From positions 1-64,000 of IMG/VR virus record IMGVR_UViG_3300037264_002228: a stretch of 64,000 bases of DNA, one strand, 5' to 3'. The notes beneath the pieces were generated by a model that had not been told where the DNA came from, searched no databases, and saw nothing but the letters and a program-made list of their open reading frames with translations. The position numbers and the translations under genes are program-made. Source of the DNA: a virus. Each line of letters opens with the position of its first letter. The first letter of the stretch is position 1. Below are positions 3,708 to 49,835 of the stretch, in pieces.

Positions 3708-4516
3708 CAAGTGGTGTAGTTTATTATAATGTTGGTAGGTCTTGTGCTGTTAGGCTGTTAGTGTCTGCGCATAGTTTAGTAAAACATTACACAGGTGACA
3801 TTACTATCTTATCTGATGGTAATGAATCACATTCTTATTGTAAACAGATTGCATCAGCCCTAAATATTAACTATAAAGAAGTATTATTAGATATGGATCG
3901 TGATCAACATAATTACCCATATTTGGTAAAAACACGTATAAATGAAATAGCGCCTTATGACTATAATGTTTTTATTGATGCTGATACATTAATAGTTGGT
4001 AGTATATCTGAACTTTTTAATTCATCTCCATTTACAATAACAAGAATGTGTGAATGGAGCACACAAAAAAGAACAATTGCTAATAGAATTTCTTCGTGGT
4101 CACATTTAAAACCAGAATTAGTTGATAAAGCTATAAAATATGGTAAGGCAATTAACACTGGTGTATATTCTTTTGATAGGAATGCATCAATATTTAATGA
4201 ATGGTATGATTTAACTTTAGCTAACAAACAATCTTTTATACCAGATGAAGTAGCATGTCAATTATTAATTACGGTACATGAACACAAATTATTAGATTGT
4301 AGATTCAACTATTCATGTAAATATGGTCCAAATATTGATGACATTAGAATCATTCATTTTCATGGTAGAAAACATTGTAGGCCAGGATTGCCATATAATG
4401 GTATAAAATGGGTAACTGCATATAATGAAGTAGTAAAACTTAATTTGGCGAATATTAAAACATGGCAACCAGCAGGTGATAAGATGTTATATAAATATTT
4501 GAAATCTAATGAATAA
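3704..4516 (+). CDS. Glycosyltransferase, GT8-like
   Basis: VFIDADT, INTGV, PDE, FN..., IIHFHG motifs of GT8-like enzymes. Confidence 0.75.
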   Translation: MTSGVVYYNVGRSCAVRLLVSAHSLVKHYTGDITILSDGNESHSYCKQIASALNINYKEVLLDMDRDQHNYPYLVKTRINEIAPYDYNVFIDADTLIVGSISELFNSSPFTITRMCEWSTQKRTIANRISSWSHLKPELVDKAIKYGKAINTGVYSFDRNASIFNEWYDLTLANKQSFIPDEVACQLLITVHEHKLLDCRFNYSCKYGPNIDDIRIIHFHGRKHCRPGLPYNGIKWVTAYNEVVKLNLANIKTWQPAGDKMLYKYLKSNE

Positions 4517-5141
4517 AGTATCGATTTGTATTACTGTAAAAAATAGGAGTAAAGTATTAGGAAGAACAATACTACTTAATACTGTTAGGTCAATAATAAA
4601 CAACATAACAGATAAAGACAATATTGAATTAATAATAACAGATTGGAATTCTACTGATTGGCCGTTAAAAGAATGGATTTATGATGAAGTTAAACATGTT
4701 CAATTTAAGTTGATAACAATTGATAAGCAAGGTTTTAATAGAGGTATTGGATTAAATACTGCAGCTGAACATGCGACTGGTAATGTGTTGTTTTTTAGTG
4801 AGTCTGATGTGATGATTGATAGGCCAACAATTGATTTGGCTTTAAAAATTGAAGATAAAGCTTTATTTCCTCGTATAAGAAGGACAACACCAACTAGTCA
4901 TTTAATAGTTAGAGAAAGTAGGCGTTGGTTGCGTGGGTTTGGGATTGCTATAGTACGACGCGAGTGGTGGGAAACGGCTGGACATTATAAAAGTTTTTGG
5001 TTTGACTCTACTAACTGGGGTGGCGAAGATAATCAATTCCATGCTGATATTGTATCATTAGGTATACCTATAGAACGACCAAAAATGAATAATTTAATTC
5101 ACCAATGGCATCCAAGGAAAATGTTCAATGAACAAGTTTGA
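4509..5141 (+). CDS. Glycosyltransferase, GT2/GT7-C-like
   Basis: VSICITVKNR, DWNSTD, FNRGIGLN, ESD, WGGED, HQWH. Confidence 0.8.
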   Translation: MNKVSICITVKNRSKVLGRTILLNTVRSIINNITDKDNIELIITDWNSTDWPLKEWIYDEVKHVQFKLITIDKQGFNRGIGLNTAAEHATGNVLFFSESDVMIDRPTIDLALKIEDKALFPRIRRTTPTSHLIVRESRRWLRGFGIAIVRREWWETAGHYKSFWFDSTNWGGEDNQFHADIVSLGIPIERPKMNNLIHQWHPRKMFNEQV

Positions 5142-5844
5142 AATTTGTGTGCAGCAATATTCTTTTACTAAAAGATGTTGGTGGCAATTAAGTAGTTTGG
5201 CAGAACAAACATTAAAAACCAACTTTACGCTTAGATTGAGTATTCATAATAATGATCCATTTCGTGAATTAAATAATAAATTAATATCAACATTTAGTAA
5301 TTTAATTGATTTAAAAGTAAAAATTTGGACTAATGATACGTTTTTTAGACGTGGTGATGTTCGCAATACTGATTTAGTTGAATCATCACGGCAATGGATA
5401 ATATTTGCCGACGCTGATGTAATATTTGATAAATCATTTTTTGAAAAACTTAATAATATTACATTGATACAAAATAAAATGAGTGTTATTAGACGGTTTA
5501 ATACGTCAATAGATGATGGTTATAAACTTATTAATTCAGAAACATATAATACTTATATAAAACGACCAATAACTAAAATAATGAAATTTCCGTTACAACG
5601 AAGTTCGTCAATTGGTGCTGGATATTTCCAGTTAATTAATGCTGATTTTGTTCGTAATAAAGGATTAAAATATAGTAAAGATACCATAGATAGACCATTA
5701 ATAGAACGTAGAGGCCCAACATATAGATCAGATAGACAACTTAGAGGGATTCTAGGCCTTAATCGTATAGATATTGCGCCCATATATCATATTAATCATT
5801 ATAGATTAAAAAATAAAGAAAGAATAGCGACAGGATGTCAATGA
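5128..5844 (+). CDS. Glycosyltransferase, GT-A (GT2-like)
   Basis: RN...WIIFADADVIF, GYFQL, YHINH. Confidence 0.7.
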   Translation: MNKFEICVQQYSFTKRCWWQLSSLAEQTLKTNFTLRLSIHNNDPFRELNNKLISTFSNLIDLKVKIWTNDTFFRRGDVRNTDLVESSRQWIIFADADVIFDKSFFEKLNNITLIQNKMSVIRRFNTSIDDGYKLINSETYNTYIKRPITKIMKFPLQRSSSIGAGYFQLINADFVRNKGLKYSKDTIDRPLIERRGPTYRSDRQLRGILGLNRIDIAPIYHINHYRLKNKERIATGCQ

Positions 5845-6404
5845 ACACTTTTACAAAAGACTGGCACGGTAGGCATGCTAAAAATTGGAATAGAATATTG
5901 GGCCAATATAAAAATCAGCCAAATATTCGTTATCTTGAAGTAGGTGTATATGAAGGTAAATCGTCATGTTGGGTGATGGACAATATATTAACACATTATA
6001 CGAGTACAGCTACTGGCATCGATCCATGGGTAAATTCAGATGAACAATTCAGAATAGCTACGTCTAATTTAAGAAAATATGGTAATAGATACACAATCAT
6101 GCGTGGATATTCAACAACAGTATTGCCAACATTAACTAACATAGAAGACATAATATATATTGACGGCGACCACCATGCTGATGCTGTTTATAATGATGCG
6201 ATTTTATGTTGGCCAAAATTAAAAATTGGTGGTATATTAATATTTGATGATTATAATTTGCGTTTGCGCAGACATAACCGTTCAGGCGGTGAAGCAGGTA
6301 TACCAAGACCTGGTATAGATAAATTTTTATCATTAATGAGTAATTGCATTAATATCGAAAAAACAAGAACTCAAGTATTTGTTAAAAAAATTATTAAAAA
6401 TTAA
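5835..6404 (+). CDS. Class I SAM-dependent methyltransferase (Methyltransf_24-like)
   Basis: LEVGVYEGKS, IDPW, IYIDGDH, LKIGGILIFDDY. Confidence 0.85.
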   Translation: MSMNTFTKDWHGRHAKNWNRILGQYKNQPNIRYLEVGVYEGKSSCWVMDNILTHYTSTATGIDPWVNSDEQFRIATSNLRKYGNRYTIMRGYSTTVLPTLTNIEDIIYIDGDHHADAVYNDAILCWPKLKIGGILIFDDYNLRLRRHNRSGGEAGIPRPGIDKFLSLMSNCINIEKTRTQVFVKKIIKN

Positions 6405-6992: not shown

Positions 6993-7735
6993 AAACATTG
7001 ATATTCCTATGCGGTTATGATGATTTTTATTTCAAACTAGCTAACATGACCGCGCATACAATTCGTTTATCTGGTTATAAACAAGACATAGTTATTTTTA
7101 CTATTGATGATCGTAAATCAGACTATGCAAAATGTATAAACCTGGCGTCACATAAAGAGTCTAATTTAATTATAACACAGAAAGAAGGTGGTTTTTTCCA
7201 TCGTAAATTATGTAAAGAATTTGGACATAAGCAGTATGACAAACAGTATGATTTCTTTGTAATAAAAACACTTCCTGGATCTATAATCAAAAAAGAAGAT
7301 TATGATTTTATATTGTATATGGATTCTGATATGTTGGTCCATTCCTCATTAGATAAAATTTTTACATATAAAACAGTTGTATCTGATTTTAATAGTAAAA
7401 ATGCTTATAAAGACTTAAAAGGATTATCTAAACACTTAACATCGCAAGAAGAAAGTGTTGCACGTAGTTTATCTGGCATTGGTGGTGGTGGATTTGGTGT
7501 CCCGTCTAGTCACTATAGATGGTTTGATGATTATAGAAAAATTTATCTTCAATATATCAATGAAATCCCACATGATCAACCAGCTCTGACTATGACTATG
7601 ATAAGACATTATAATGATTATAAAGTGGAAAAATTACCAAATCGTGCTTATTGGATACATTATTGGGGCTATAGAAAAGCACAAATGATAAAAGATTATG
7701 ATGCAAAATACGCAAATTGTATTTTAAATAAATGA
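6983..7735 (+). CDS. Putative GT-A glycosyltransferase
   Basis: ILYMDSDM DxD motif, HDQPAL, IHY. Confidence 0.65.
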   Translation: MDMKTLIFLCGYDDFYFKLANMTAHTIRLSGYKQDIVIFTIDDRKSDYAKCINLASHKESNLIITQKEGGFFHRKLCKEFGHKQYDKQYDFFVIKTLPGSIIKKEDYDFILYMDSDMLVHSSLDKIFTYKTVVSDFNSKNAYKDLKGLSKHLTSQEESVARSLSGIGGGGFGVPSSHYRWFDDYRKIYLQYINEIPHDQPALTMTMIRHYNDYKVEKLPNRAYWIHYWGYRKAQMIKDYDAKYANCILNK

Positions 7736-8826
7736 GAGTACTGATCACATCGGATATACACTTTGGTGTTCCAGGAAAATTAGAACATACATTGTGGGCC
7801 TCTAAAGTTATAAGAGAATACGCACATAAGCACGATATTGGTACTATTTTGGTGCTTGGTGATTTATTTCATGATAGAAATAATCTTAATATACAGGTAT
7901 TAACTACGGCATACGATTTTTTCGACGAGACAAGTCGGGACTATTCACAAGAATGGATAGCATTTCCAGGCAACCATGATATGTTTTTAAAAAATTCATG
8001 GAAAGTTAATTCTGTAAGGCCATTGAATCGACTTATTACAATTATTGAAGATATTAAAGCTTTTAGCATAGATGGTAGAAAATTCTGGGTTCTGCCGTTT
8101 GTACATTATGAGTCAGCTTATATGCAAGTAGTACGAGCTATAGAAGCGAAAGCTTCTCCAGAAGATATATTGTTGACTCATATTGGTGTGCATGGTGCAT
8201 CATTAAATGAATGTTTTTTATTGAAGCATTGGAGTCTTGTTAATTTTTCTGATACGATTTTTAAACGAGTGTACTCAGGGCATTTTCATTGTTATCAACA
8301 AGTTGGTGAAAAAACTTGGTATTCTGGAAGCCCAATACCATTTAGATTCGATGAGGGTCTAGTAGAGCATGGATTTTTAGAGTTTGATACTACAACATGT
8401 GAACATAAATTTATAAAGATATTCGAAGCAGGTAAGCAATTATTACCAGACCTGCCACCAGCTCCTGATTTTGTAACTTGTATTGATACATCAATAAATA
8501 ATATTGATTTTACAAATAGTAATGCTAGAATTTGTTTGTCACGTGATTATACCAGCAATGAATTATCAGAATTACGATTGATGTTAACTAACAAAGGTGC
8601 ATTATCAGTGAAATGGATAAAGGCCAAACAACAAGAAGACAAAGAACTACAAACAACAACTACGTCTAATATGGGTGATGGTGCCGCGTTATTTCATAAA
8701 TGGATTGATCATGATAAGCCAGAACATATAGATTTGAATACACTTCAAGAATTAAATAAACAGGTTGTAGAAGAAGGCATGGAGAGGCTGTCCAATACTG
8801 AGGACCATAATGGCGATTCCGCTTAA
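7732..8826 (+). CDS. Recombination nuclease, T4 gp47/SbcD/Mre11-like
   Basis: Metallophosphoesterase motifs SDIH, GDLFH, GNHD, SGHFH; adjacent to the gp46-like gene. Confidence 0.92.
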   Translation: MRVLITSDIHFGVPGKLEHTLWASKVIREYAHKHDIGTILVLGDLFHDRNNLNIQVLTTAYDFFDETSRDYSQEWIAFPGNHDMFLKNSWKVNSVRPLNRLITIIEDIKAFSIDGRKFWVLPFVHYESAYMQVVRAIEAKASPEDILLTHIGVHGASLNECFLLKHWSLVNFSDTIFKRVYSGHFHCYQQVGEKTWYSGSPIPFRFDEGLVEHGFLEFDTTTCEHKFIKIFEAGKQLLPDLPPAPDFVTCIDTSINNIDFTNSNARICLSRDYTSNELSELRLMLTNKGALSVKWIKAKQQEDKELQTTTTSNMGDGAALFHKWIDHDKPEHIDLNTLQELNKQVVEEGMERLSNTEDHNGDSA

Positions 8827-10951
8827 AATAAAAACCATAGAATGGTCAAATTTCATGAGCTATGGTGATTATCAAACATCACTTGAGCTAAATTCTTTAG
8901 GGCCAGTTTTAATTGTAGGCCAAAAGGATGGTCAAAAAGATGAAAGCAACGGTGTAGGCAAAACAACTATCACAACTGCTATAATATGGTGTTTGTTTGG
9001 TAGAACACCTAGACGTGCAGCCCCTGGAGATAAAGTCATAAATTTTTATACAAAGGGCGAATGTTATGTCAAAATAATAACAATTGATGACTGGGTTATA
9101 ACACGCACTAGAAAATTAAATGGCCATGATGATTTATTGGTCCATAAAGATGGCGAAGATGTAACATTGTCAACAACAAAGCATGCTCAACTATTGTTAA
9201 AGAAATTATTTAATCTTGATTACGACATATTCATTTCAAGTATGTTCTTTGGACAAAGAACAGAATCGTTTCTTGAAATGAGTGATATGAAGCGTAAAGC
9301 AGCATTAGAACGATTATTAGGTTTGAATCGTTTAAATGTATGGGGCGATGTAGCAAAAGAAAAACGGATAGTTGCTGAATTAGAACAACAGAAAATAAAA
9401 ACAATAATTGAATCAAAACAATGGGCTGTTAATACTGTTCAGACCCAAATAGATAACGCCACACAATTAGAGCGCACATTTGAGAGTGACAGGTGTAATA
9501 AGATAGAATCTATTAAATCGGAATCTGAAACACTAAGTTCAATAGAATTCGATCACAATAAATTTGAAGAACTAAAAACTGAATTTAATATTTACAATGA
9601 TAATAAAAATAAATTGTTGGATATCAATAAAAGACTCGGACAAGCTCAAGATATGTGTGTCCAACTTAAATCTGATATCGACCAGCAAAGCAAATTAATC
9701 GTGCAATATAAGAATAGATTGATGTTGCTTGGATCTATTGATGTTGATGTTATTGAGACCGCACATAAAAATGCCAATTTGGCTGAACAAAATAAATTGA
9801 CACTACAAGATAAAATTAATAAACTAGCATTAGAAAAACGAAAACTAGAACAAGATCTTCGTCAGCTGATTGATTCAATTAATGGGTGGAACAATAAAGC
9901 TGGTACAAATTGTCCATCGTGTCAACAACCAGTTACAAAAGGCCATACAGACAATATTTGTAAACCATATTTAGATCAGGGCAAGTTATTGAAATCTAAA
10001 ATTAAAACAATTAGTGATGATTTAATTATTATAACTAATGAATTCAATAGAATTAAAATTGAGCGACCAACAACAACTTTGGTCGCAGCTATCAGAGACA
10101 AACAAGAAACTGATATAATAAATGCTAATATTAAAGAATTAAATGATAAAATTGTTATTAAAAAAGAACAATATAATAAATTATGCAAAATGGTGAACGC
10201 ATATGGAGTACAGAATAGTAAATTAGGTCTTATAGTAGATAGTTCAGATATTCAAACTAGATATGATGCTATGCAAATTGAATTTAATGAATTTAATAAC
10301 AGGTTAGTATTGATTGGTCAACTAAACTCACGACTAGTAGAAGAACAATCCAGAGAGAATCCGTATCGTGGCATCATTAATTCATTGTCTATTGAACTTA
10401 ATAATGTTAAAAATGAGCTTAGTACTCATTTGTCGAATGTTGCCCAGTTAGATATTAATATCAAATCTTATGATTATATTAGACATAGCTATCATGATCG
10501 TAATAAGATAAAAATGTTCATTTTGTCTGGATTAATACCATATCTTAATCAGAGAATAGAATACTACTTAAATGCTTTTGAATGTGATTTAATATTGAAG
10601 TTTACATCAACATTGTCTATTGAAACATCTAGGTGGGATTACGATTTCCATTCTGGTGGACAACAAAAAAGAATTGATATTGCAATCATGTTTGCGTTAT
10701 ATGATCTATATATTTCGATGTATGGTCAACAGTGCAATGTTATGGTTCTAGATGAAGTTGATGGTGCATTAGATTCTCATGGTGTTAGAATGTTTGTTGA
10801 CATTATCACTAATGATTTCTCTGGTGATAGGCCAGATAAGCCAGACACTATATTGGTAATAAGCCACAAGAATGATATGGTAGATCAATTTCCTAATCAG
10901 ATTATAGTATCTCAAGACGCACAAGAATACTCCCATATTTTAAAGACATAA
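8810..10951 (+). CDS. Recombination ATPase, T4 gp46/SbcC/Rad50-like
   Basis: Walker A NGVGKTT, coiled coil with CPSC zinc hook, signature SGGQ, Walker B VLDE, ISH. Confidence 0.93.
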   Translation: MAIPLKIKTIEWSNFMSYGDYQTSLELNSLGPVLIVGQKDGQKDESNGVGKTTITTAIIWCLFGRTPRRAAPGDKVINFYTKGECYVKIITIDDWVITRTRKLNGHDDLLVHKDGEDVTLSTTKHAQLLLKKLFNLDYDIFISSMFFGQRTESFLEMSDMKRKAALERLLGLNRLNVWGDVAKEKRIVAELEQQKIKTIIESKQWAVNTVQTQIDNATQLERTFESDRCNKIESIKSESETLSSIEFDHNKFEELKTEFNIYNDNKNKLLDINKRLGQAQDMCVQLKSDIDQQSKLIVQYKNRLMLLGSIDVDVIETAHKNANLAEQNKLTLQDKINKLALEKRKLEQDLRQLIDSINGWNNKAGTNCPSCQQPVTKGHTDNICKPYLDQGKLLKSKIKTISDDLIIITNEFNRIKIERPTTTLVAAIRDKQETDIINANIKELNDKIVIKKEQYNKLCKMVNAYGVQNSKLGLIVDSSDIQTRYDAMQIEFNEFNNRLVLIGQLNSRLVEEQSRENPYRGIINSLSIELNNVKNELSTHLSNVAQLDINIKSYDYIRHSYHDRNKIKMFILSGLIPYLNQRIEYYLNAFECDLILKFTSTLSIETSRWDYDFHSGGQQKRIDIAIMFALYDLYISMYGQQCNVMVLDEVDGALDSHGVRMFVDIITNDFSGDRPDKPDTILVISHKNDMVDQFPNQIIVSQDAQEYSHILKT

Positions 10952-13074: not shown

Positions 13075-14082
13075 GTGAATTATAGATCACAGCCAAAACC
13101 TCAAATTCAACGTGTTAATGTTCGAATGCATCCAGTACCAGTTGTTAAAAAACAGTCCCCACAAATGTCCGTAATTCATAAACCTGTATCAAGACCCACT
13201 TTACCAGTAGTGAAACATACGTCTAATAATGTACAGAAACCAGTAGTAACTACGTCTAAGCCTCAGCCAGCAGTAAGACAAGAAGCCAGACAAAATATTA
13301 AAGTAAAACCGAATATTCAAGTTAATAGATCACCAAATGTAGTAAAACCAAGAAATATTTCTAGACATTCTAGTTCAATGTCAGCGCAGCACCAAAACTT
13401 GTTACAACAATATAAAGAATCTGTTGATAAGTTGCGTTGTGTTGGCAATAACAAAATACTTATTATTGTAGCTTGTGGACCTTCTATATTAAATGTTAAC
13501 ATTGAAGAATTAAAAGATTATAAAAACATCGACATAATGTGTATTAACAAACCAGACAAAAGAGTATGGCCATCACCATATTGGTTGTTCTGTGATCAAA
13601 GTCAATACGCACGTAACCAAGACACATGGGAACAATATAATGGGATTATCATAAATGCTTCATCGGTTCGTGCTCGGCATAGGCGTCAGGTATTAATTAA
13701 AAGCCTGTCTGGTCGCGGATTTTCAAGAGATTTAGCTAAAGGATTTTATATTGGTAGATCATCAACATACTCAGCAATGCAAGTGGCATTATGGATGAAT
13801 TATAGTAAGATATATATATTCGGTGTTGATATGTGTGCTGTTGATGGTAAATTACATTATTATGGTAAGAATCCTGACGTGTCAGATACAAATAGAGTAC
13901 AACGGTTCGATAGAGAAGCAGAAAGTTATATGCACGCAGCCACTAGCGTTTTAAAACAAGAGGATAGAGAGAAATTTGTTTTTTGTTCATCTTACAATAA
14001 ATATAAATTTGTTGATTATTTTCAGCGGTTGGATGAAAAGGAAGCTGTATCAATTATAATAGAGCAGGCAAATAAACTTTAG
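13075..14082 (+). CDS. Second Maf/DUF115-like putative glycosyltransferase with a basic, low-complexity N-terminus
   Basis: IIVACGPSI...CIN...FCD...SSTYSAMQVALWMNYSKIYIFGVDM...HYYG. Confidence 0.7.
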   Translation: MNYRSQPKPQIQRVNVRMHPVPVVKKQSPQMSVIHKPVSRPTLPVVKHTSNNVQKPVVTTSKPQPAVRQEARQNIKVKPNIQVNRSPNVVKPRNISRHSSSMSAQHQNLLQQYKESVDKLRCVGNNKILIIVACGPSILNVNIEELKDYKNIDIMCINKPDKRVWPSPYWLFCDQSQYARNQDTWEQYNGIIINASSVRARHRRQVLIKSLSGRGFSRDLAKGFYIGRSSTYSAMQVALWMNYSKIYIFGVDMCAVDGKLHYYGKNPDVSDTNRVQRFDREAESYMHAATSVLKQEDREKFVFCSSYNKYKFVDYFQRLDEKEAVSIIIEQANKL

Positions 14083-14090
14083 GAGGAAAT

Positions 14091-14279
14091 ATGGCAGACA
14101 AAGGACATGAAGGCAGCAAACAAAACTTTGGTGATGGCAAGAAGAGCGCCAAGGGTGCTCATGGTGGTGGTACCAAGTATAATGAAATAAAACTAAAATA
14201 TCCAAAGTTTGGGTTAGGTGAAGGATTTAAACAAAAGGATAAGCCTGGGAAGAGTACTCAGGGGAATGATATACCATAA
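14091..14279 (+). CDS. Small Lys/Gly-rich hypothetical protein
   Basis: 62-aa ORF with strong RBS AGGAGG. Confidence 0.65.
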   Translation: MADKGHEGSKQNFGDGKKSAKGAHGGGTKYNEIKLKYPKFGLGEGFKQKDKPGKSTQGNDIP

Positions 14280-14299
14280 TCATAGCCTGTATATAAGGT

Positions 14300-14848
14300 A
14301 TGATGAAGTTATCAGGTACACGAGTATACCTAGCTGGCGCAGTTGAGCACAATTTCGATAATGCTGTCTCATGGAGAGATAGCATAACGGCCAAACTAAA
14401 GCAGTATAATATAACTGTGTACAATCCTCTTGTTAAACCACAGTGGCTACCACAGAACTGCAAAGTAGATCCCGCCTTATATAAAGCGGTATTGTCTGGT
14501 CAATCGACCGACATGACAAAGGAAGAAGTGTTTCAAGCCACTTCTGATGTACGTCGCTTGTGCTTGAGAATGGTCACTTCTGCTGATTTTGTCATATGTT
14601 ATATGCCTAAGGTCTTTACCTGTGGCACATTTGAAGAAATCTACTTGGCAGCTAGCTTAGAAAAACCAGTCTTGTTTTGCATGCCAGATGGTATGATTTC
14701 TACTTGGCTGTTACCTGTTTTTGCGAACGCTAAAAACATGAATGATGTTTATTTTTATAACTGGGACTCACTTCTTGATCACATTGATAAATTAAACAAT
14801 GGGCAAGCCAGAATCGATGCATATAAATGGTTGTCTTCTAATTATTGA
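14300..14848 (+). CDS. Nucleoside 2-deoxyribosyltransferase-like / dNMP N-glycosidase (Rcl/DNPH1-like fold)
   Basis: VYLAG, WRD, YNP, ADFVI, GTFEEI (catalytic Glu), KPV. Confidence 0.75.
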   Translation: MMKLSGTRVYLAGAVEHNFDNAVSWRDSITAKLKQYNITVYNPLVKPQWLPQNCKVDPALYKAVLSGQSTDMTKEEVFQATSDVRRLCLRMVTSADFVICYMPKVFTCGTFEEIYLAASLEKPVLFCMPDGMISTWLLPVFANAKNMNDVYFYNWDSLLDHIDKLNNGQARIDAYKWLSSNY

Positions 14849-14860
14849 TAGGAATGAAAT

Positions 14861-15619
14861 ATGTTTACTACAAGATTTGAAATTAATGTCACAGACCGTA
14901 AGCTAAATCCATTAGTAGCTGTCGATTTAGCTATGAAGCATAGTTGTCCAGCGATTGTTACAATACCTGAATTGGTTGCGCCATTTATTGCTGCTAGATC
15001 TATGCGTAAGGCCCTATTCAAGATTATATTGGCTGTTGATCTTCCTGATGGTGATAATTTTGCGATGTTAAAATTGCGCGATCTTGGAAATGATGCCCTG
15101 GCAGCCGATGGATTTGATATTGTGTCGTCTAAAAGGCGTAAGCCGATTGAATCACTCAATGAAGTAAAGTCATTGACTGAATTTATAGTTAGTATGAATC
15201 CATTTGCTGAAATTAGATGGTCGATTGGTGCCATTGATCGTGCTGAATCTGATTATGCCGAACATTTGAAATCACTACATAAATATCCATGTTCAATGAT
15301 ACGCACAGATCATAGATTATTTGTTGGATCTGGTGTTGGTGTTGATAAGCACAAATTAATTGTTAATTCTATTCGTAAATATGTCGCATCACCAATAAAA
15401 TTGTCTGGTAATATTGATCGTGATACCTATCTTGCATTTGAGAATGACAAATCCATAAGATTTGATGTAACAGCAGATCAATTTAATAGCTTACGCAAAT
15501 CAGTGATTGGGCAAGCCAATGAGCAGAAAAAAGAAGAAAGTACACAAAAAGAACCATCAGCACAAACCATCATCGATGACGAAGAAATCATTGGCACGTT
15601 GGGTAAAGATGTCGAATAA
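14861..15619 (+). CDS. Divergent DeoC (deoxyribose-phosphate aldolase)-like TIM-barrel protein
   Basis: Motif order AIVTIP / AVDLPDG / ADGFDIV / MIRT / IKLSGNI parallels DeoC VCVxP / VIGFPxG / ADEIDMV / FVKTS / VKASGGI; the Schiff-base Lys appears replaced by Arg. Confidence 0.45.
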   Translation: MFTTRFEINVTDRKLNPLVAVDLAMKHSCPAIVTIPELVAPFIAARSMRKALFKIILAVDLPDGDNFAMLKLRDLGNDALAADGFDIVSSKRRKPIESLNEVKSLTEFIVSMNPFAEIRWSIGAIDRAESDYAEHLKSLHKYPCSMIRTDHRLFVGSGVGVDKHKLIVNSIRKYVASPIKLSGNIDRDTYLAFENDKSIRFDVTADQFNSLRKSVIGQANEQKKEESTQKEPSAQTIIDDEEIIGTLGKDVE

Positions 15620-15980
15620 TTTAACCGATGATTTTAGTTGCCCATTTTGTAAAACTAAAAATGCAGCTACATCATCTTCTTGGGATAACGTTGGATATAT
15701 ACCAATTATTTGTATTAATTGTTCGAGTTTGTTTTGGGCTAGGATGCCAGGCAATTCGGAATTGACTATTGTTAATAGAGTACCAGTATTTAAAATGCAA
15801 ATACCTGAATTAGATGAGAATACGTGGATAATAGTTGTAAACAAAGAACATCAAAAACATTTAGAACCAGGCAGGGTAACAAAAAGAGACCATAAACATT
15901 ACCGTGTTGAATTTAATGATGGCGTTCAAATTTGGATGCCACAGCACTGGATAGAGAAAATCCCATGGGAAGTTAAATGA
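15609..15980 (+). CDS. Zinc-ribbon protein with an SH3/KOW-like C-terminal domain
   Basis: CPFC...CINC; ATG at 15609 is a more plausible start than the track's 15507. Confidence 0.55.
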   Translation: MSNNLTDDFSCPFCKTKNAATSSSWDNVGYIPIICINCSSLFWARMPGNSELTIVNRVPVFKMQIPELDENTWIIVVNKEHQKHLEPGRVTKRDHKHYRVEFNDGVQIWMPQHWIEKIPWEVK

Positions 15981-16711
15981 TAATATTAGGCGCAGACGTC
16001 GAAACTAACGGATTAGAAGATTCTAGTGAAATAGTTGAGCTAGGTTTGGTAGTAATGAACTCTACTGATTCTGCTATTTTAGCTATGCATTCTGATTTAT
16101 TTAAGACAAAATCTTGGTCAAAAGAAGCAGAAGCAATTCATCATATAAGTAAAGCATCATCAGACTTAGGTGCCGATGCATCGTTTAATCCATGGGGATT
16201 GATTGGTAAGTATAATCCTGAAGTAATTGTCGCCCATAATGCCGAATTCGACAAAGGCAAAATAGTCAAAAGGTGGCCCGAATTTGGTAAATTACCATGG
16301 GTGTGTACTCATCGTGATTTGCCGCACTCCAGATTTGTACCTAAGGTCAGCTCAAATAAACTACAGCATTTAGCAGTAGATTATGATATTCAAGTTCCTA
16401 GGAAACATCGTGCAGTATTTGATGCGCTGTTATGTTGTGAAATAGCTGCGAAACACGACCTAGAAACAGTATTGAAATTGGCGAATGAGGCTAAATATTG
16501 TGTTTTTTCTTGGTTTGAAGGTAAACCAAATTATAGCGATGAGAAATTTATAATACATAAAGATTATTTGAAAAAAGCTGGGTTTACATGGGATGGAGAC
16601 AACTGGGTGAAATCCAATGTTGCAGAATCAGTATTAAAAAAATACGTGGCATTGGCAACGGCAACAAAAGGATGGAAATCAAGGGTTACGCCAATAGATA
16701 AACAGAATTGA
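15977..16711 (+). CDS. DEDDh 3'-5' exonuclease (DnaQ/epsilon-like)
   Basis: DVETNG, AHNAEFD, HRAVFDA. Confidence 0.9.
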   Translation: MIILGADVETNGLEDSSEIVELGLVVMNSTDSAILAMHSDLFKTKSWSKEAEAIHHISKASSDLGADASFNPWGLIGKYNPEVIVAHNAEFDKGKIVKRWPEFGKLPWVCTHRDLPHSRFVPKVSSNKLQHLAVDYDIQVPRKHRAVFDALLCCEIAAKHDLETVLKLANEAKYCVFSWFEGKPNYSDEKFIIHKDYLKKAGFTWDGDNWVKSNVAESVLKKYVALATATKGWKSRVTPIDKQN

Positions 16712-16718
16712 GGACACC

Positions 16719-17966
16719 ATGATTTTTAAGCCTGGTAAAATAACAATTGTTTTAGATGGTGGAGCCGGTAGCAGTGCTAAAGGGTTACGTGGCGCATATA
16801 TATGGAAGCATATGCGCCGTGATGCCACATTTGCTGTAAACACATTTATGAGCAATGCTGCTCACTCAATTACGCACGAAGATGGTAGAGAATATGTGCA
16901 TCAATGTTTGTCTAGTATAACATCAATCGGAAATTATGAGCGACAATATGTCAGTCCTGGGTGTGCATTTTCAGCCAATGAAATGTTAAATGAACTAAAA
17001 ATTTGTGATGTGAGTCATGATAAGCTTGGTATTCATCCAAATACTGTGATTGTAACCCAAAAAGACATAGATTATGAAAAGGGTCTTGTAGACTTCGAAG
17101 GCAACAAAAAACAAGATCGTGGTAGTGCCAACTTGAATATTGGATCTACACTACATGGAGTAGGTGCGGCTAGAGCACGTCGAGTATTGCGTAGACCAGA
17201 TGTTATGTTAGCGAAGGATGTACCAGAATTCAAACCATATCTGTGTAACACAAACGACGAAATAATGACTAGACTTGCAGCTAAACAATCAGGACTTGGA
17301 GAAATAGCTCAGGGATATCAATTAAGCCTTATGAGCGAGTTCTATCCGCGAACAACCAGTCGCAATTGTTCTGTTGCGGCATTCTTGGATGATTCATTAT
17401 TGCCACCGAATATTGTTGGTCCAGTTGTTGTGAACTTTAGAACGTACCCAATCAGAGTGAATAACAATAAATATCTGCGTAAGTCAGATGGTAAAATTTT
17501 AACATGGAATGAGTTTAATAGTACACCTGACACTGATAAAAATGTGATTGTTGGTGATTCTGGTGGGTGCTATGCCGATCAACATGAAATGTCGTGGGAT
17601 GAGATATCTACAATGGCTGGCGAAACGATATTTGAATGCACTAGTTTGACAAAATTACCGAGACGAGTATTTTCATTTAGTAAAATCAATTTAATGAATT
17701 CATTGAAATATAATAACACTGGAGATGATGTTTATATCAGTGTTAATTTTATGAATTATGTTGATAATTCTGTTAAGGGCAAGTCGACAAAAGAAGAAGT
17801 ATTGACACCAAAGGTTATTTCATGGTTGAAGGATAATATTTTAGCAGATGACGTACTACGATTTTTAAATCTATATAATATCAAATTAAATGGATTATTT
17901 ATTGGTACATGGAAAACTATTGATAGCAGCGTATTTTTAACAAAATCAGATTTAGAATCGTTATGA
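16719..17966 (+). CDS. purZ: PurZ-like N6-succino-2-amino-dAMP synthase (adenylosuccinate synthase paralogue)
   Basis: GSSAKG (Ser where PurA has the catalytic Asp of GDEGKG), NAAH, GSTLHGVG, AQG, YPRTTSR, RTYPIRV, SGGCYADQ, TKLPRRVFSFS, NFMNY (where PurA has TKLD). Confidence 0.75.
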   Translation: MIFKPGKITIVLDGGAGSSAKGLRGAYIWKHMRRDATFAVNTFMSNAAHSITHEDGREYVHQCLSSITSIGNYERQYVSPGCAFSANEMLNELKICDVSHDKLGIHPNTVIVTQKDIDYEKGLVDFEGNKKQDRGSANLNIGSTLHGVGAARARRVLRRPDVMLAKDVPEFKPYLCNTNDEIMTRLAAKQSGLGEIAQGYQLSLMSEFYPRTTSRNCSVAAFLDDSLLPPNIVGPVVVNFRTYPIRVNNNKYLRKSDGKILTWNEFNSTPDTDKNVIVGDSGGCYADQHEMSWDEISTMAGETIFECTSLTKLPRRVFSFSKINLMNSLKYNNTGDDVYISVNFMNYVDNSVKGKSTKEEVLTPKVISWLKDNILADDVLRFLNLYNIKLNGLFIGTWKTIDSSVFLTKSDLESL

Positions 17967-19189: not shown

Positions 19190-19663
19190 ATGAAAATTAA
19201 ATGTCTATTTGAAGACCATAAACGATTATATTATCGAATTTTGTCGGTTGAAAGTGGTGTTGATGGATACTTCAATAATAATTTGTCGAAAATTCTAGAG
19301 ATACTTAGTGGCCTAAAGATTGATAGAAATGATTATGGTAGTGTCACTACATATTTAGATATTGGAGAAGAACGAAAATTCGACCCAACTCGTGGACCAG
19401 ATTGGGTAGCAAATAGAGCAATTGAATGGTTTGCGTTTAAATTTTTGAATGGCAAACCAGTTATTGAATTCCATCAAGATGTTGAAGAACTTGATGAAAA
19501 TAATAGCATGTTAAGATTAGATAAAGCTGTTGATATTAATACATTTACGAATGTTGATGTATCACCATTAGGTGAATGGGTTGGTGGCAAGGGTGCATCT
19601 AGAGAAATAATATTAAACAACGATGTAGATATTATTGATTATCTTAAAAGAAAAATGGAATAA
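19190..19663 (+). CDS. Hypothetical protein (possible internal head protein)
   Basis: N-terminal MKIKCLFE; late-like motif upstream. Confidence 0.6.
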   Translation: MKIKCLFEDHKRLYYRILSVESGVDGYFNNNLSKILEILSGLKIDRNDYGSVTTYLDIGEERKFDPTRGPDWVANRAIEWFAFKFLNGKPVIEFHQDVEELDENNSMLRLDKAVDINTFTNVDVSPLGEWVGGKGASREIILNNDVDIIDYLKRKME

Positions 19664-19698: not shown

Positions 19699-20610
19699 AT
19701 GCCAGAATTTGAAAACATCACACGCGTAACAGTGCCAGAATTAGAAGCAATTCTTGGAAAACCTTTTAAAATTTTAAATGACGGTTTTATTAGAGTTGTA
19801 GACTATATGGGCGCAGATGAATCAATAGTTCAAGCTGCCAGAGTTTCTTATGGTAAAGGAACCAAGAAAGTTAGTGAAGATGAAGGATTAATTAGGTTCC
19901 TAATGCGCCATCGACATACTACACCATTTGAAATGTGTGAAATTAAATTACATGTGCGTGTGCCTATGGATCATTGGAGACAATGGATAAGGCATAGGAC
20001 GGCCAATGTTAATGAATATAGCACTAGATATAGTGAAGCCATTGATTCAACTCAAAACACATTGCCTGGAGAATGGCGAATTCAAGGATTAGGTAATAAA
20101 CAAGGTAGCAGTGGCTATATTGATGTTGTTGACGGTGAACAGTTAACTAAAAGTGAAAAAGAATTGCATGAGTATACACGTAAAGTATACGAAGAAAGAT
20201 TGGCTAAGGGTGTTGCTAGAGAGCAGGCCAGAAAAGATTTACCGCTGTCAACATACACTGAAGCGTATTGGAAAGTAGACTTACATAATCTATTACATTT
20301 CTTGGGTTTGAGAATGGACCCACATGCACAATTAGAAATTAGAAAATATGCTAATATTATGGGTGACATACTAAGTAAATGGGTACCACTTACATGGAAG
20401 GCGTATCTTGATTATAGAATGAATGCATTGACATTATCTTCTAGAGATACGGCTATCATAAAGGCACTTAATTTAAGTGATTTTAGTGCTGCCGCTAAAG
20501 AATTAGCAGAAGAATATGGTTGGCTTAAAAATGGCATACCAGCTAAAAACCGTGAGCGTGAGGAATTTGAATATAAATTAGACAAACTAGGAATATCAAT
20601 TCCATGGTAA
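19699..20610 (+). CDS. thyX: FAD-dependent thymidylate synthase
   Basis: AARVSY, HTTPFE, RHRTANVNEYSTRY ThyX motif, HAQLEIR. Confidence 0.97.
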   Translation: MPEFENITRVTVPELEAILGKPFKILNDGFIRVVDYMGADESIVQAARVSYGKGTKKVSEDEGLIRFLMRHRHTTPFEMCEIKLHVRVPMDHWRQWIRHRTANVNEYSTRYSEAIDSTQNTLPGEWRIQGLGNKQGSSGYIDVVDGEQLTKSEKELHEYTRKVYEERLAKGVAREQARKDLPLSTYTEAYWKVDLHNLLHFLGLRMDPHAQLEIRKYANIMGDILSKWVPLTWKAYLDYRMNALTLSSRDTAIIKALNLSDFSAAAKELAEEYGWLKNGIPAKNREREEFEYKLDKLGISIPW

Positions 20611-47321: not shown

Positions 47322-49835
47322 ATGACTGGCGATAAGATAACATATACACATGAAGCAGTATTAAAATCATGTCTTGAATATTACGATGGAGACATAATGC
47401 AGTCTTCTATTACACAAAAGAAGTATTTGTTGCGTGATAAAGACGGAACGTTTTATGAATCAAATCCTGACCATATGCATGATAGGTTGGCGCGTGAATT
47501 CGCTCGCATAGAAAAGAAAATGAATCAGACTATTGATGAAAATGCATATTTTGCTAGAGTGCGAGCATTATTAAATCGATTTTCTAAAACAGTGCCACAA
47601 GGTAGCCCAATGGCAGCAATTGGTAATGATTTTCAGATTCAATCTCTGAGCAATTGTATGGTCATTGCTGCGCCGCATGACAGCATGGCAGGCATTTTTA
47701 AATCTGGACTGGAAATTGCCGAATTACAAAAACGCCGTGCTGGTGTTGGTATAGATCTATCGACCTTACGTCCAGTCGGTTCTAAAGTGAACAACGCCGC
47801 CCTTTCGTCATCAGGTGTACCATGCTTTTCTGATTTTTATTCTGATATTACACGTATGATAGGCCAGCGAGGCCGCGTTGGGGCTCTGATGCTGACGTTG
47901 GATATTAGACATCCAGATGTTGAATATTTTACATGCATGAAATCAGATCTTACTAAGGTTACTGGTGCAAATGTCTCTCTAAAATTAACTGATGAATTCA
48001 TGAGCGCCGTTGAAAATGATAAAGAGTTTGTACAACAATGGCCGATTGATGTACCACTTGAACAAGCTAAAGTTGTTAAAAAAACTAAAGCTAGAGATCT
48101 ATGGAATATTATTATTGAACAAGCGTGGAAAACGGCTGAGCCTGGTCTTTTAATGTGGGATAATTACACTAGGATGCTTCCAGCACATCAATATCCAGGA
48201 TTTGAGACACAAAGTACAAATCCATGTTCCGAGATTGCTTTATCACCAAACGATTCTTGCAGGTTGATTTCACAGAATTTATTTGGTTGGGTAAAAGACC
48301 CATTTTTAAAAGATGCACGTTTTGATTTCGATGAATATTTTGAAGACACACGTATTGCACAGAGAATGTCAGATGGTATAGTTGAATTGGAATTAGAATC
48401 AATTCAAAAAATTATTGATGTCTCAGATTCTGATTTCGAACGTGAGCTGTGGAATAAAGTACTGCTTGCTGCATGTAATGGTCGCAGAACTGGTTTAGGC
48501 ACACATGGTTTAGCTGATGTGTTCTTAGCACTCGGAATACGATATGATTCAGATGATGCTATCGATCTTGTTGACAAAATTTACAATACGCATAAGTTAG
48601 CAAGCTATACAGAATCTATCCAAATGGCTAAAGAACGCGGTGCTTTCCCTGCTTGGAATTGGAAATATGATGAACGATCAGAGTTTATACGCGCATTACC
48701 AGAGAAAATGAAACTAGACATAAAGAAATATGGTCGTCGTAATATTTCTAATCTGACTATTGCACCGACTGGTAGTGTGTCAGTTGTATCTGGTACTTCA
48801 TCTGGCATTGAACCTGTGTTTAGATTAGTATATGATCGCAGAGTTAAAATCACACATGTCGACATGTCAATTCCAGTCGATTATGTTGATGCAGTTGGTG
48901 ACAAATGGACCAATTTTAGAGTAGTACATCCAATGGTTAAGCATTATTTTAAAGCTAAAGGCATTAAATGCCCAATTAATAGTGGTCGAGATTTTTCAAT
49001 GACTCTAGAAGATGCCAATGAAATCATTGAAAAACAACTACCAAAATGGTTTGTTACTTCTAATAAAATAAATTACATGCAAGGAATTAAATTGCAAGCT
49101 ATGGCTACAAAACATTTAGACCATGGTGTGTCTAAAACCATTAATTTACCGAAGGGCTCTAAAAAAGATGAGGTTAGTCAAGTTTATTTTAAAGCTTGGA
49201 AAATGGGTTTAAAAGGTGTAACGGTATATGTTGATGGATCTCGTGATGGCGTATTGATCTCTGAAACAAAGAAAGAACCAAGCGATGAGAATAGGCCATC
49301 ATCTATAATTGATAATCATGCGCCTAAGCGTCCAAAATCACTGTCTGCAGAAATTCATCACATAAAAATCAAGGGCAAAGACTGGGCGGTTGTTGTTGGA
49401 TTATTGGGTAACAAACCATATGAAACGTTTGCTGGTAGAGGATTGGTATTACCTAAAACTGATAAAATTGAATCAGCAACAATTACCAAAGTTTCTAATG
49501 GGCGTTATAAACTTTCAATTAAAATAGTTGATAATGGTATAGAAGAATATAATGACTTACGTGAAATTTATGACAACAATGAAGAAAGAGTAATTACACG
49601 GTCAGTATGCCGAGAACTTCGACATGGAATTCCAATTGAATTTATTGCAAAGGATCTTGCCGAACATTCTGGTTCAATTGCAAATTTCTCTGCCGCATTG
49701 GCTAGAGTATTAAAGAAATATGCAAAAAATGCTAATCGCTTAATGAAGAAGTGTCCACAATGTTCTGGTACTGATTTTATTATGCAAGACGGGTGCGCAA
49801 GTTGTGTAACTTGTTATTTTTCTAAATGCAGTTAG
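47322..49835 (+). CDS. nrdJ: Adenosylcobalamin-dependent (class II) ribonucleotide reductase
   Basis: SLSNC, TNPCSE, RRTGLG, IAPTG, SKTIN, KGVTVY.DGSR; C-terminal domain ending CPQC...GCASCVTC..SKC. Confidence 0.9.
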   Translation: MTGDKITYTHEAVLKSCLEYYDGDIMQSSITQKKYLLRDKDGTFYESNPDHMHDRLAREFARIEKKMNQTIDENAYFARVRALLNRFSKTVPQGSPMAAIGNDFQIQSLSNCMVIAAPHDSMAGIFKSGLEIAELQKRRAGVGIDLSTLRPVGSKVNNAALSSSGVPCFSDFYSDITRMIGQRGRVGALMLTLDIRHPDVEYFTCMKSDLTKVTGANVSLKLTDEFMSAVENDKEFVQQWPIDVPLEQAKVVKKTKARDLWNIIIEQAWKTAEPGLLMWDNYTRMLPAHQYPGFETQSTNPCSEIALSPNDSCRLISQNLFGWVKDPFLKDARFDFDEYFEDTRIAQRMSDGIVELELESIQKIIDVSDSDFERELWNKVLLAACNGRRTGLGTHGLADVFLALGIRYDSDDAIDLVDKIYNTHKLASYTESIQMAKERGAFPAWNWKYDERSEFIRALPEKMKLDIKKYGRRNISNLTIAPTGSVSVVSGTSSGIEPVFRLVYDRRVKITHVDMSIPVDYVDAVGDKWTNFRVVHPMVKHYFKAKGIKCPINSGRDFSMTLEDANEIIEKQLPKWFVTSNKINYMQGIKLQAMATKHLDHGVSKTINLPKGSKKDEVSQVYFKAWKMGLKGVTVYVDGSRDGVLISETKKEPSDENRPSSIIDNHAPKRPKSLSAEIHHIKIKGKDWAVVVGLLGNKPYETFAGRGLVLPKTDKIESATITKVSNGRYKLSIKIVDNGIEEYNDLREIYDNNEERVITRSVCRELRHGIPIEFIAKDLAEHSGSIANFSAALARVLKKYAKNANRLMKKCPQCSGTDFIMQDGCASCVTCYFSKCS

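Follow-up and report, generated by a model that had tools for sequence, protein, structure and literature searches.

How might a large phage build its DNA with 2-aminoadenine (Z) where neither an HD-domain DatZ nor a family A polymerase is recognisable? The question is raised by a five-gene locus at positions 14300-17966 of the stretch of DNA analysed here (the window), which is the first 64 kb of the 98,443-bp IMG/VR record IMGVR_UViG_3300037264_002228, estimated by CheckV to be ~23% complete. The locus ends in a gene for PurZ, the succino-amino-deoxyadenylate synthase of Z phages, and we judge it rather probable that a pathway for Z nucleotides has its core here, in a large uncultured sediment myophage that has a T4-like capsid and is replicated by DnaE. 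The record has a G+C content of ~36% and carries T4-type structural genes for Gp23 capsid, Gp20 portal, large terminase, tail sheath and baseplate. A preliminary description of this DNA had reported five contiguous, co-oriented genes ending in purZ, and all five open reading frames (ORFs) were recovered on the + strand, in the following order:

14300..14848, + strand: nucleoside deoxyribosyltransferase (NDT)-superfamily protein, 182 amino acids (aa); Pfam PF15891 and PF05014 above cut-off
14861..15619, + strand: DERA/DeoC-fold TIM barrel, 252 aa, assigned from an AF2 model and Foldseek; no Pfam match
15609..15980, + strand: Zn-ribbon protein, 123 aa, with CPFC...CINC motifs
15977..16711, + strand: DnaQ/PolC-type DEDDh 3'-5' exonuclease, 244 aa; RNase_T and phrog_192
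16719..17966, + strand: PurZ-type succino-amino-deoxyadenylate synthase, 415 aa; PF00709 and phrog_1211

Successive genes are spaced by a gap of 12 nucleotides (nt), an overlap of 11 nt, an overlap of 4 nt and a gap of 7 nt, a packing tight enough to permit translational coupling. A 3635-nt contig from RNA-seq run X2 spans 14282-17916 exactly; the whole 10 kb around it is also covered, and carry-over of DNA is possible.

Identification of the last gene decides whether a Z pathway need be considered at all. Its product matches PF00709 (1.4e-10) and the PurZ family phrog_1211 (3e-36), its nearest solved structures are the PurZ proteins of phiVC8 (1.3e-34) and S-2L (2.7e-21), with an archaeal PurA reaching only 5e-14, and among NCBIfam models PurZ NF038379 leads with 148.3 bits, the purA models scoring 43-101 bits. 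The NCBIfam PurZ cut-off of 300 bits is not reached, the protein belonging to a divergent subclade that has an insertion and a C-terminal extension. The P-loop reads GSSAKG, with Ser at the position of Asp13 in E. coli PurA, as in 122 of 125 aligned relatives and references, the window protein included; true PurA proteins show 99% conservation of Asp13, and all phage PurZ have Ser (PMC12884076). At the 12 PurZ-diagnostic positions named in bioRxiv 10.1101/2025.10.22.683976, phiVC8 PurZ is matched at 10, with F12->A and G256->S as the exceptions; S14, P233, Y244, W252, T262, S273, F295 and Y298 are shared. [quoted passage not shown] Because PurZ models and structures outscore those of PurA, because Ser replaces Asp13 and because 10 of the 12 diagnostic residues are kept, 16719-17966 is assigned to a new PurZ subclade, with an activity predicted from these residues, and the earlier identification of the gene as purZ is upheld.

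In a quick IQ-TREE analysis the window PurZ falls in a clade of 29 rows (SH-aLRT 99) that also takes in a PurZ-like protein from Flavobacterium phage MaF61; this MaF61-type clade is nested within the Ser-type radiation, separate from the phiVC8/S-2L clade, and the PurZ0 representative is basal. A HMMER scan of 1.84 billion representatives returned 71 clusters at E<1e-30, several of them with intein-sized insertions. A length of 750-820 aa is common among the PurZ relatives, and such proteins align with the query over two stretches set apart from each other (L010:12042-14297; P0022, P0028-P0030, P0033 and others), which suggests that the long relatives carry intein-like insertions. At locus L005 a gene for a 536-aa LAGLIDADG-like homing endonuclease stands between the DERA-like gene and PurZ.

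If PurZ supplies Z, which gene product could keep adenine out? The first gene of the locus encodes a protein that matches Nuc_deoxyri_tr2 (1.3e-8) and Nuc_deoxyrib_tr (5.8e-7) in Pfam, both above cut-off, and its AF2 model (pLDDT 86.6) is most similar by Foldseek to nucleoside deoxyribosyltransferases, followed by the nucleotide N-glycosidases DNPH1, MilB and BcmB. The NDT fold is present with its catalytic Tyr (Y10) and nucleophile Glu (E113); among 14 homologues Y10, R85, E112 and E113 are invariant and E16 is nearly so, and a HMMER alignment to the NDT of T. brucei places E113 on the nucleophile Glu and T107 on the Asp by which nucleoside transferases bind the 5'-OH. In actinophages with PurZ0, the NDT-superfamily enzyme DmtZ hydrolyses dAMP and transfers deoxyribose-5-phosphate to Z, alongside the dUTPase-like DutZ (PMC12884076). 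By the reasoning applied there, Thr107 in place of the 5'-OH-binding Asp fits a 5'-phosphorylated substrate. We therefore regard 14300-14848 as a candidate deoxynucleotide N-glycosidase or deoxyribosyl(phosphate) transferase, and as a putative functional analogue of DmtZ.

This gene also varies between close strains. In a related strain represented by DNA run X3 the flanks are 98-99.6% identical to the window, and the NDT-like gene is replaced by an allele of equal length that diverges strongly: across window positions 14298-14857 only 14394-14485 aligns, at ~79%. The pattern resembles a local event in which this one gene had its allele exchanged or diversified. The ORF at 19190-19663 is absent from the X3 strain.

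The second gene raises the question of what a DERA-shaped protein does beside such an enzyme. Its AF2 model (pLDDT 85.2) retrieves DERA structures for all of the top 50 Foldseek matches in the Protein Data Bank (PDB; E down to 2.9e-10, template modelling (TM) score 0.65-0.75), and an Atlas structure search returns DeoC clusters at TM 0.66-0.74. Sequence searches in Pfam (including PF01791), PHROG and NCBIfam and a profile search of PDB sequences gave no match. Catalytic residues were mapped by strand order and by a global alignment of profiles, in which 16 DeoC sequences served as reference; it agrees with the strand order and is not significant by sequence (probability 0.5); the DeoC set was a diverse one, since a contig scan with E. 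coli DeoC had yielded only near-identical enterobacterial copies. The correspondences, given as the DERA residue and its counterpart here, are:

Asp16: Glu7
Asp102: Asp86
Lys137: Arg119
Lys167 (Schiff base): Arg148
Lys201: Lys180

In 19 homologues E7, R119, R148 and K180 are invariant and D86 is nearly so. The Schiff-base lysine of strand 6 (E. coli Lys167) is thus missing, with Arg148 in its place, and because the catalytic lysine is an invariant Arg, aldol cleavage through a Schiff base should be impossible and the protein would not be a canonical aldolase. The description of this gene as DeoC-like holds for the structure; cleavage of deoxyribose-5-phosphate is not to be assumed of a protein in which Lys167 and Lys137 are both Arg. 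At residues ~215-252 the C-terminal end comprises a Q/E/K-rich low-complexity linker and a G-x-LG-x-DV-[EK] tail, found in 18 of the 19 homologues, and the tail looks like a docking peptide. A prediction of the complex between the NDT-like and DERA-like proteins scored 0.00 and gave no verdict, and so counts as evidence neither way. A scan of metagenome contigs with a DERA-like profile found two loci only.

Are these genes partners, or do they merely stand side by side? The five-gene order is complete at loci L007, L008, L009, L010 and L020. A wider set was anchored on the MptE-like gene that is the constant upstream neighbour of the NDT/DERA-like pair, and comprises 20 loci from 17 genomes, on contigs of up to 388 kb. 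Upstream of the NDT-like gene in the window lie two further genes:

13075..14082, + strand: MptE-like/DUF115-like (sialyl/KDO-transferase-like) protein, 335 aa; PF01973 at 30.2 bits (below cut-off), phrog_4603 at 1.6e-8 and a weak WaaZ match
14091..14279, + strand: Gly/Lys-rich protein of 62 aa, conserved in the interval from the MptE-like to the NDT-like gene

The DERA-like gene lies within ~4 kb of the anchor at every one of the 20 loci. Directly upstream of it is an NDT gene of the window type at 15 loci and one of another type, in the same slot, at four (L131, L133, L135 and L136); at the remaining locus, L140, the contig ends and the slot is not assessable. An NDT-superfamily gene therefore precedes the DERA-like gene directly in 19 of 19 assessable loci, represented by two non-orthologous types. 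The slot in L131 holds a different, Pfam-positive NDT of 131 aa, and L133, L135 and L136 have that type with an N-terminal Zn-ribbon extension. A Ser-type PurZ is encoded within 5 kb at 18 loci, and the two complete genomes that lack a nearby copy encode it elsewhere (G092 at 124 kb, G094 at 34 kb). The Zn-ribbon gene is present at 12 of the 20 loci and the exonuclease at eight. Since the DERA-like and NDT genes are constant on these counts and PurZ occurs in all the genomes, the constant core is the NDT-type enzyme, the DERA-like barrel and PurZ, with the exonuclease and Zn-ribbon protein as accessories. The co-occurrence of NDT- and DeoC-like genes with purZ, on which the original proposal for this locus depended, is kept across 17 related genomes.

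That the genes are mere syntenic neighbours in a conserved replication and nucleotide block, without any coupling in a pathway, appears to us distinctly unlikely. The closest relatives are collinear from 7.7 to 24 kb, promoter and terminator scans gave background levels and were uninformative, and the exonuclease and Zn-ribbon genes come and go, all of which would agree with simple synteny. Against this, the adjacency of the NDT and DERA-like genes outlasts an inversion (L137), insertions of deaminase or dCTP deaminase (DCD) genes (L010, L139) and a swap to the different NDT type, while PurZ has been replaced in situ by other subclades. The genes found adjoining the pair are a dCMP deaminase in L010 and a dCTP-deaminase/dUTPase-fold gene in L137 and L139. 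The PurZ slot is filled by at least three subclades, which suggests turnover by in-situ displacement. In the complete 370-kb relative G094 (L139), PurZ lies 170 kb away from this locus.

A further question is the nature of the product. PurZ might serve a different or further-modified purine, the DERA-like barrel, and perhaps the MptE-like neighbour, acting on its product or on a sugar-phosphate to give a hypermodified base or nucleotide. We think this rather improbable. The retained DERA pocket geometry, with two lysines turned into invariant arginines, points to an anionic substrate of a new kind; at all 20 loci the MptE-like gene is no farther than ~4 kb away, and KDO-pathway genes occur in the genome; and L139 has a Mom-family gene 2-4 kb downstream of the exonuclease, near the usual PurZ slot. 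On the other side, the constancy of the MptE-like gene is partly circular, that gene having been the search anchor, and PurZ, PurB and a dNMP kinase suffice for plain dZTP. Phage Mu owes its modification of adenine at N6 to the Mom family. The genes downstream of the exonuclease in L139 include those for a NUDIX hydrolase (L139:13905-14390) and a Mom-family protein of 484 aa (L139:15911-17365 (-)).

Returning to a pathway for plain Z, which of its other members does the phage encode? Beyond the window, the record contains the following genes:

67300-67890 of the record: dNMP-kinase-like gene
71302-71634 of the record: MazG-family gene, outside the window and 54 kb away, its product 24% identical to S-2L MazZ
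75408-75905 of the record: dCMP deaminase
90323-91729 of the record: PurB adenylosuccinate lyase; TIGR00928 at 356.8 bits, above cut-off

Judged from their residues, PurZ would condense dGMP with aspartate and the phage PurB would release dZMP, which the dNMP-kinase-like product and host kinases could then raise to dZTP. By analogy with DmtZ, the NDT-superfamily enzyme would take the adenine-purging role that DatZ has in small Z phages, either splitting dAMP into adenine and deoxyribose-5-phosphate or handing the sugar-phosphate to another base. The DERA-shaped barrel, whose gene appears always to be coupled in translation to that of the NDT enzyme, probably has as its ligand or substrate the deoxyribose-5-phosphate set free, or another anionic sugar-phosphate of that kind. 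A bolder version, which we offer tentatively, is that this Arg/Arg barrel is a new enzyme or carrier working with an NDT-type glycosidase, the substrate being deoxyribose-5-phosphate or an intermediate of the PurZ pathway, that the two provide DatZ-independent adenine exclusion and possibly a second route to dZMP, and that thanks to them giant DnaE phages can make Z-DNA with no need of a family A polymerase selective for Z.

The canonical partners were sought across the record and its relatives. Searches of the window and of the full 98-kb record turned up no HD, PolA or PolB, in agreement with the preliminary description, which recognised no HD-domain DatZ or family A DpoZ in the window; nor was a dUTPase or DCD gene found in the 98-kb fragment. 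None of five large relatives, three of them complete (320-388 kb), has an HD_3-type DatZ by a search that did detect HD_3 in genome G003, and generic HD models gave weak matches only; MazG was found in one of the five. The three complete relatives yielded no PolA, and all have DnaE. Such negatives call for some caution, as PF00709 missed a PurZ-like gene in G006 that a protein query found. DatZ is not a fixed part of the system, its absence holding only for the seen portion of the genome.

What, then, of the exonuclease, which had been proposed to free dNMPs for the pathway? The protein matches RNase_T (1.8e-7, above cut-off) and phrog_192, 'DNA polymerase exonuclease subunit' (4.7e-21); the NCBIfam families 3'-5' exonuclease, ExoX, PolC and dnaQ all match below cut-off, and the closest PDB entry is the PolC exonuclease 2p1j. 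Its translation has the DEDDh motifs DxE, NAEFD and HxxxxD, followed by a C-terminal extension of ~80 aa. DnaE was not found in the 98-kb record, and occurs in seven relatives with larger contigs (G002, G003 and G090-G094); PolB was found in none of the relatives searched. Because the protein is of the DnaQ/PolC family, the phages replicate with DnaE and the gene is present at so few of the loci, it is most likely an epsilon-like proofreader of the phage DnaE. That it feeds dNMPs to the glycosidase ranks low, since 12 of the 20 loci do without the gene and its product suits the part of a DnaE proofreader. DnaE of the relatives is often split into ORFs of ~470-480 aa and 730-800 aa with two or three small genes between, as in L017:5933-7342 and 8733-10934, or L018:7081-8523 and 3849-6263 (-).

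The Zn-ribbon ORF was listed from a TTG at 15507, but its likely start is the ATG at 15609, which overlaps the upstream stop (ATGTCGAATAA). The protein has two CxxC pairs and a weak match to the Elf1 Zn-ribbon (E 0.005), and none in Atlas, PHROG or NCBIfam. The CxxC..CxxC extension fused to the NDT in L133, L135 and L136 shows marginal similarity to it (E ~0.01-0.02 in a four-sequence search). It is probably an optional accessory, not a pathway enzyme.

How firmly can the locus be read as a Z pathway? Several observations weigh against that reading. The presence of Z in the DNA of this phage is a prediction from its genes, and the record covers ~23% of the genome, leaving 77% unseen. Genome G003 has an HD_3/YfbR-like gene beside DnaE, which is missing at the same place in G002. 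The expectation that canonical datZ and mazZ are absent elsewhere in the genome is thus upheld in part: the MazG gene of the record and the G003 gene speak against it, and the complete relatives, in which no HD_3 was found, speak for it. On base and sugar-phosphate specificity, the sequence of the NDT-like protein gives indirect hints only: E16 at the spacing of DmtZ Asp12, and Thr107 at the position of the 5'-OH-binding Asp. BLASTP detects no similarity between this protein and the DmtZ-DutZ fusion of Arthrobacter phage Supakev (E 0.095), so that it appears to be an analogue of DmtZ in the superfamily, outside the monophyletic DmtZ group of PurZ0 phages. Its sole match in the phage collection is a homologue from LR756511, a phage of 595 kb in which no PurZ and no DERA-like protein was found. 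Conversely, MaF61, whose genome is complete, encodes PurB and a PurZ of the same clade, and no NDT-like or DERA-like gene was detected there; PurZ is hence not strictly dependent on the pair. Finally, all of the linked loci come from one syntenic phage group, and their linkage partly reflects shared ancestry.

MaF61 and LR756511 would also agree with purine auxiliary metabolism that involves no Z-DNA, in which the PurZ-like protein and PurB raise adenine (deoxy)nucleotides in a host living in nutrient-poor sediment and the NDT/DERA-like pair is a general salvage module for the nucleotides of degraded host DNA. The genome is rich in genes of an auxiliary kind (NAPRTase, PncA-like isochorismatase, KdsA, acyl-CoA dehydrogenase), and the Ala at position F12 of PurZ points the same way. 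We nevertheless hold this explanation to be fairly unlikely: Ser at Asp13, T262, F295, Y298, W252 and Y244 match PurZ, not PurA, and the NDT, DERA-like and PurZ genes occur together at genome level in every relative checked.

How new is the arrangement? The preliminary description had proposed NDT-type destruction of dAMP, or a base swap, beside PurZ as something undescribed. The idea has precedent in kind and was already published, for DmtZ (PMC12884076) and for NDT-M2 (bioRxiv 10.1101/2025.10.22.683976), so that the route to Z-DNA is probably partly published (2026) and partly undescribed. The system of DmtZ, DutZ and PurZ0 (actinophages Ghobes and Wayne; Poubanne et al., NAR 2026, PMC12884076) is a close one, in that the companion of a Ser-type PurZ is an NDT-superfamily enzyme and not DatZ. 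The catalytic Tyr and Glu are kept, an acidic residue follows six positions after the Tyr (Y6/D12 in DmtZ and Y10/E16 here, a likeness of spacing only), an uncharged residue stands where NDTs bind the 5'-OH, and two complete relatives have a dUTPase-fold (DCD) gene immediately beside the NDT gene of the pair, which recalls DutZ-DmtZ. It differs in that PurZ here is from another subclade than PurZ0, in that the DmtZ phages are siphophages of 40-50 kb with PolA, as against DnaE myophages of 300-390 kb, and in the obligatory DERA-like partner, which is absent from the description in PMC12884076.

The classic purZ-mazZ-datZ(-dpoZ) cluster of S-2L, phiVC8 and Acinetobacter phage SH-Ab 15497 has in common with the present genome the diagnostic residues of PurZ and a MazG-family pyrophosphohydrolase. 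Unlike that cluster, the fragment and three complete relatives have no HD_3/YfbR-type DatZ and no family A polymerase, the MazG gene is distant and divergent from mazZ, and PurB is encoded by the phage. NDT-M2, which comes from aquatic phage contigs enriched in dZ (Yang et al., bioRxiv 10.1101/2025.10.22.683976), is likewise of the PF05014 family and statistically associated with dZ phages, dA being its preferred donor; its substrates are nucleosides and it is found together with DatZ and PolA, whereas neither is found here and Thr107 replaces the 5'-OH-binding Asp. With the DERA/DeoC of E. coli (1JCL) the second protein shares the TIM-barrel fold and equivalents of Asp102 and Lys201, and it departs from it in the two invariant arginines, in the lack of a Pfam DeoC match and in the additional C-terminal linker and tail. 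A literature search found no paper that ties PurZ to a DERA-like partner, to large phages replicated by DnaE or to a phage-encoded PurB.

The locus sits inside a nucleotide and replication block, whose other landmarks in the window are:

7732-10951: Mre11/Rad50-like recombination proteins
19699..20610, + strand: ThyX thymidylate synthase (Pfam Thy1, 8.2e-53), marking nucleotide-metabolism surroundings
47322-49835: RNR

The 62-aa Gly/Lys-rich protein has homologues of 60-75% identity at the same position in L007, L008, L009 and L020, and small ORFs resembling it are found also in L131, L133, L135 and L136. A second MptE-like/DUF115-like gene lies at 1636-2979, and the same genome has KdsA and a KdsD-like SIS+CBS gene (L003:12412-13188; L004:4438-5382); together with the MptE-like genes these may constitute a KDO-type glycosylation system. 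An unusual set of auxiliary genes in this record (G000) encodes an acyl-CoA dehydrogenase of 589 aa (73124-74893; L003:9124-10893), a PncA-like isochorismatase and NAPRTase for NAD salvage (78711-80538; L003:14711-16538) and an ADP-ribosylglycohydrolase (82657-83676; L003:18657-19676). Phage records searched by megablast with the 10-kb region gave no match. Several studies of sediment and freshwater sediment have near-identical copies in their metagenomes.

What would a Z pathway in such phages mean? To our knowledge, the Z-genomes documented so far belong to small sipho- and podophages that have a PolA-type DpoZ and either DatZ/MazZ or DutZ/DmtZ. If the proposed pathway is true, Z-DNA would extend to DnaE myophages of 300-390 kb that are common in freshwater sediments, adenine would be purged by a third independent solution, and a family of uncharacterised, DERA-derived proteins would be a constant partner in it. 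One may also ask what a replicase of the Pol III type, its epsilon-like proofreader being separate, makes of dZTP as against dATP. The cultured MaF61, having PurB and a PurZ of the same clade but not the pair, is a natural control, and the enzymes may serve the enzymatic production of Z-DNA.

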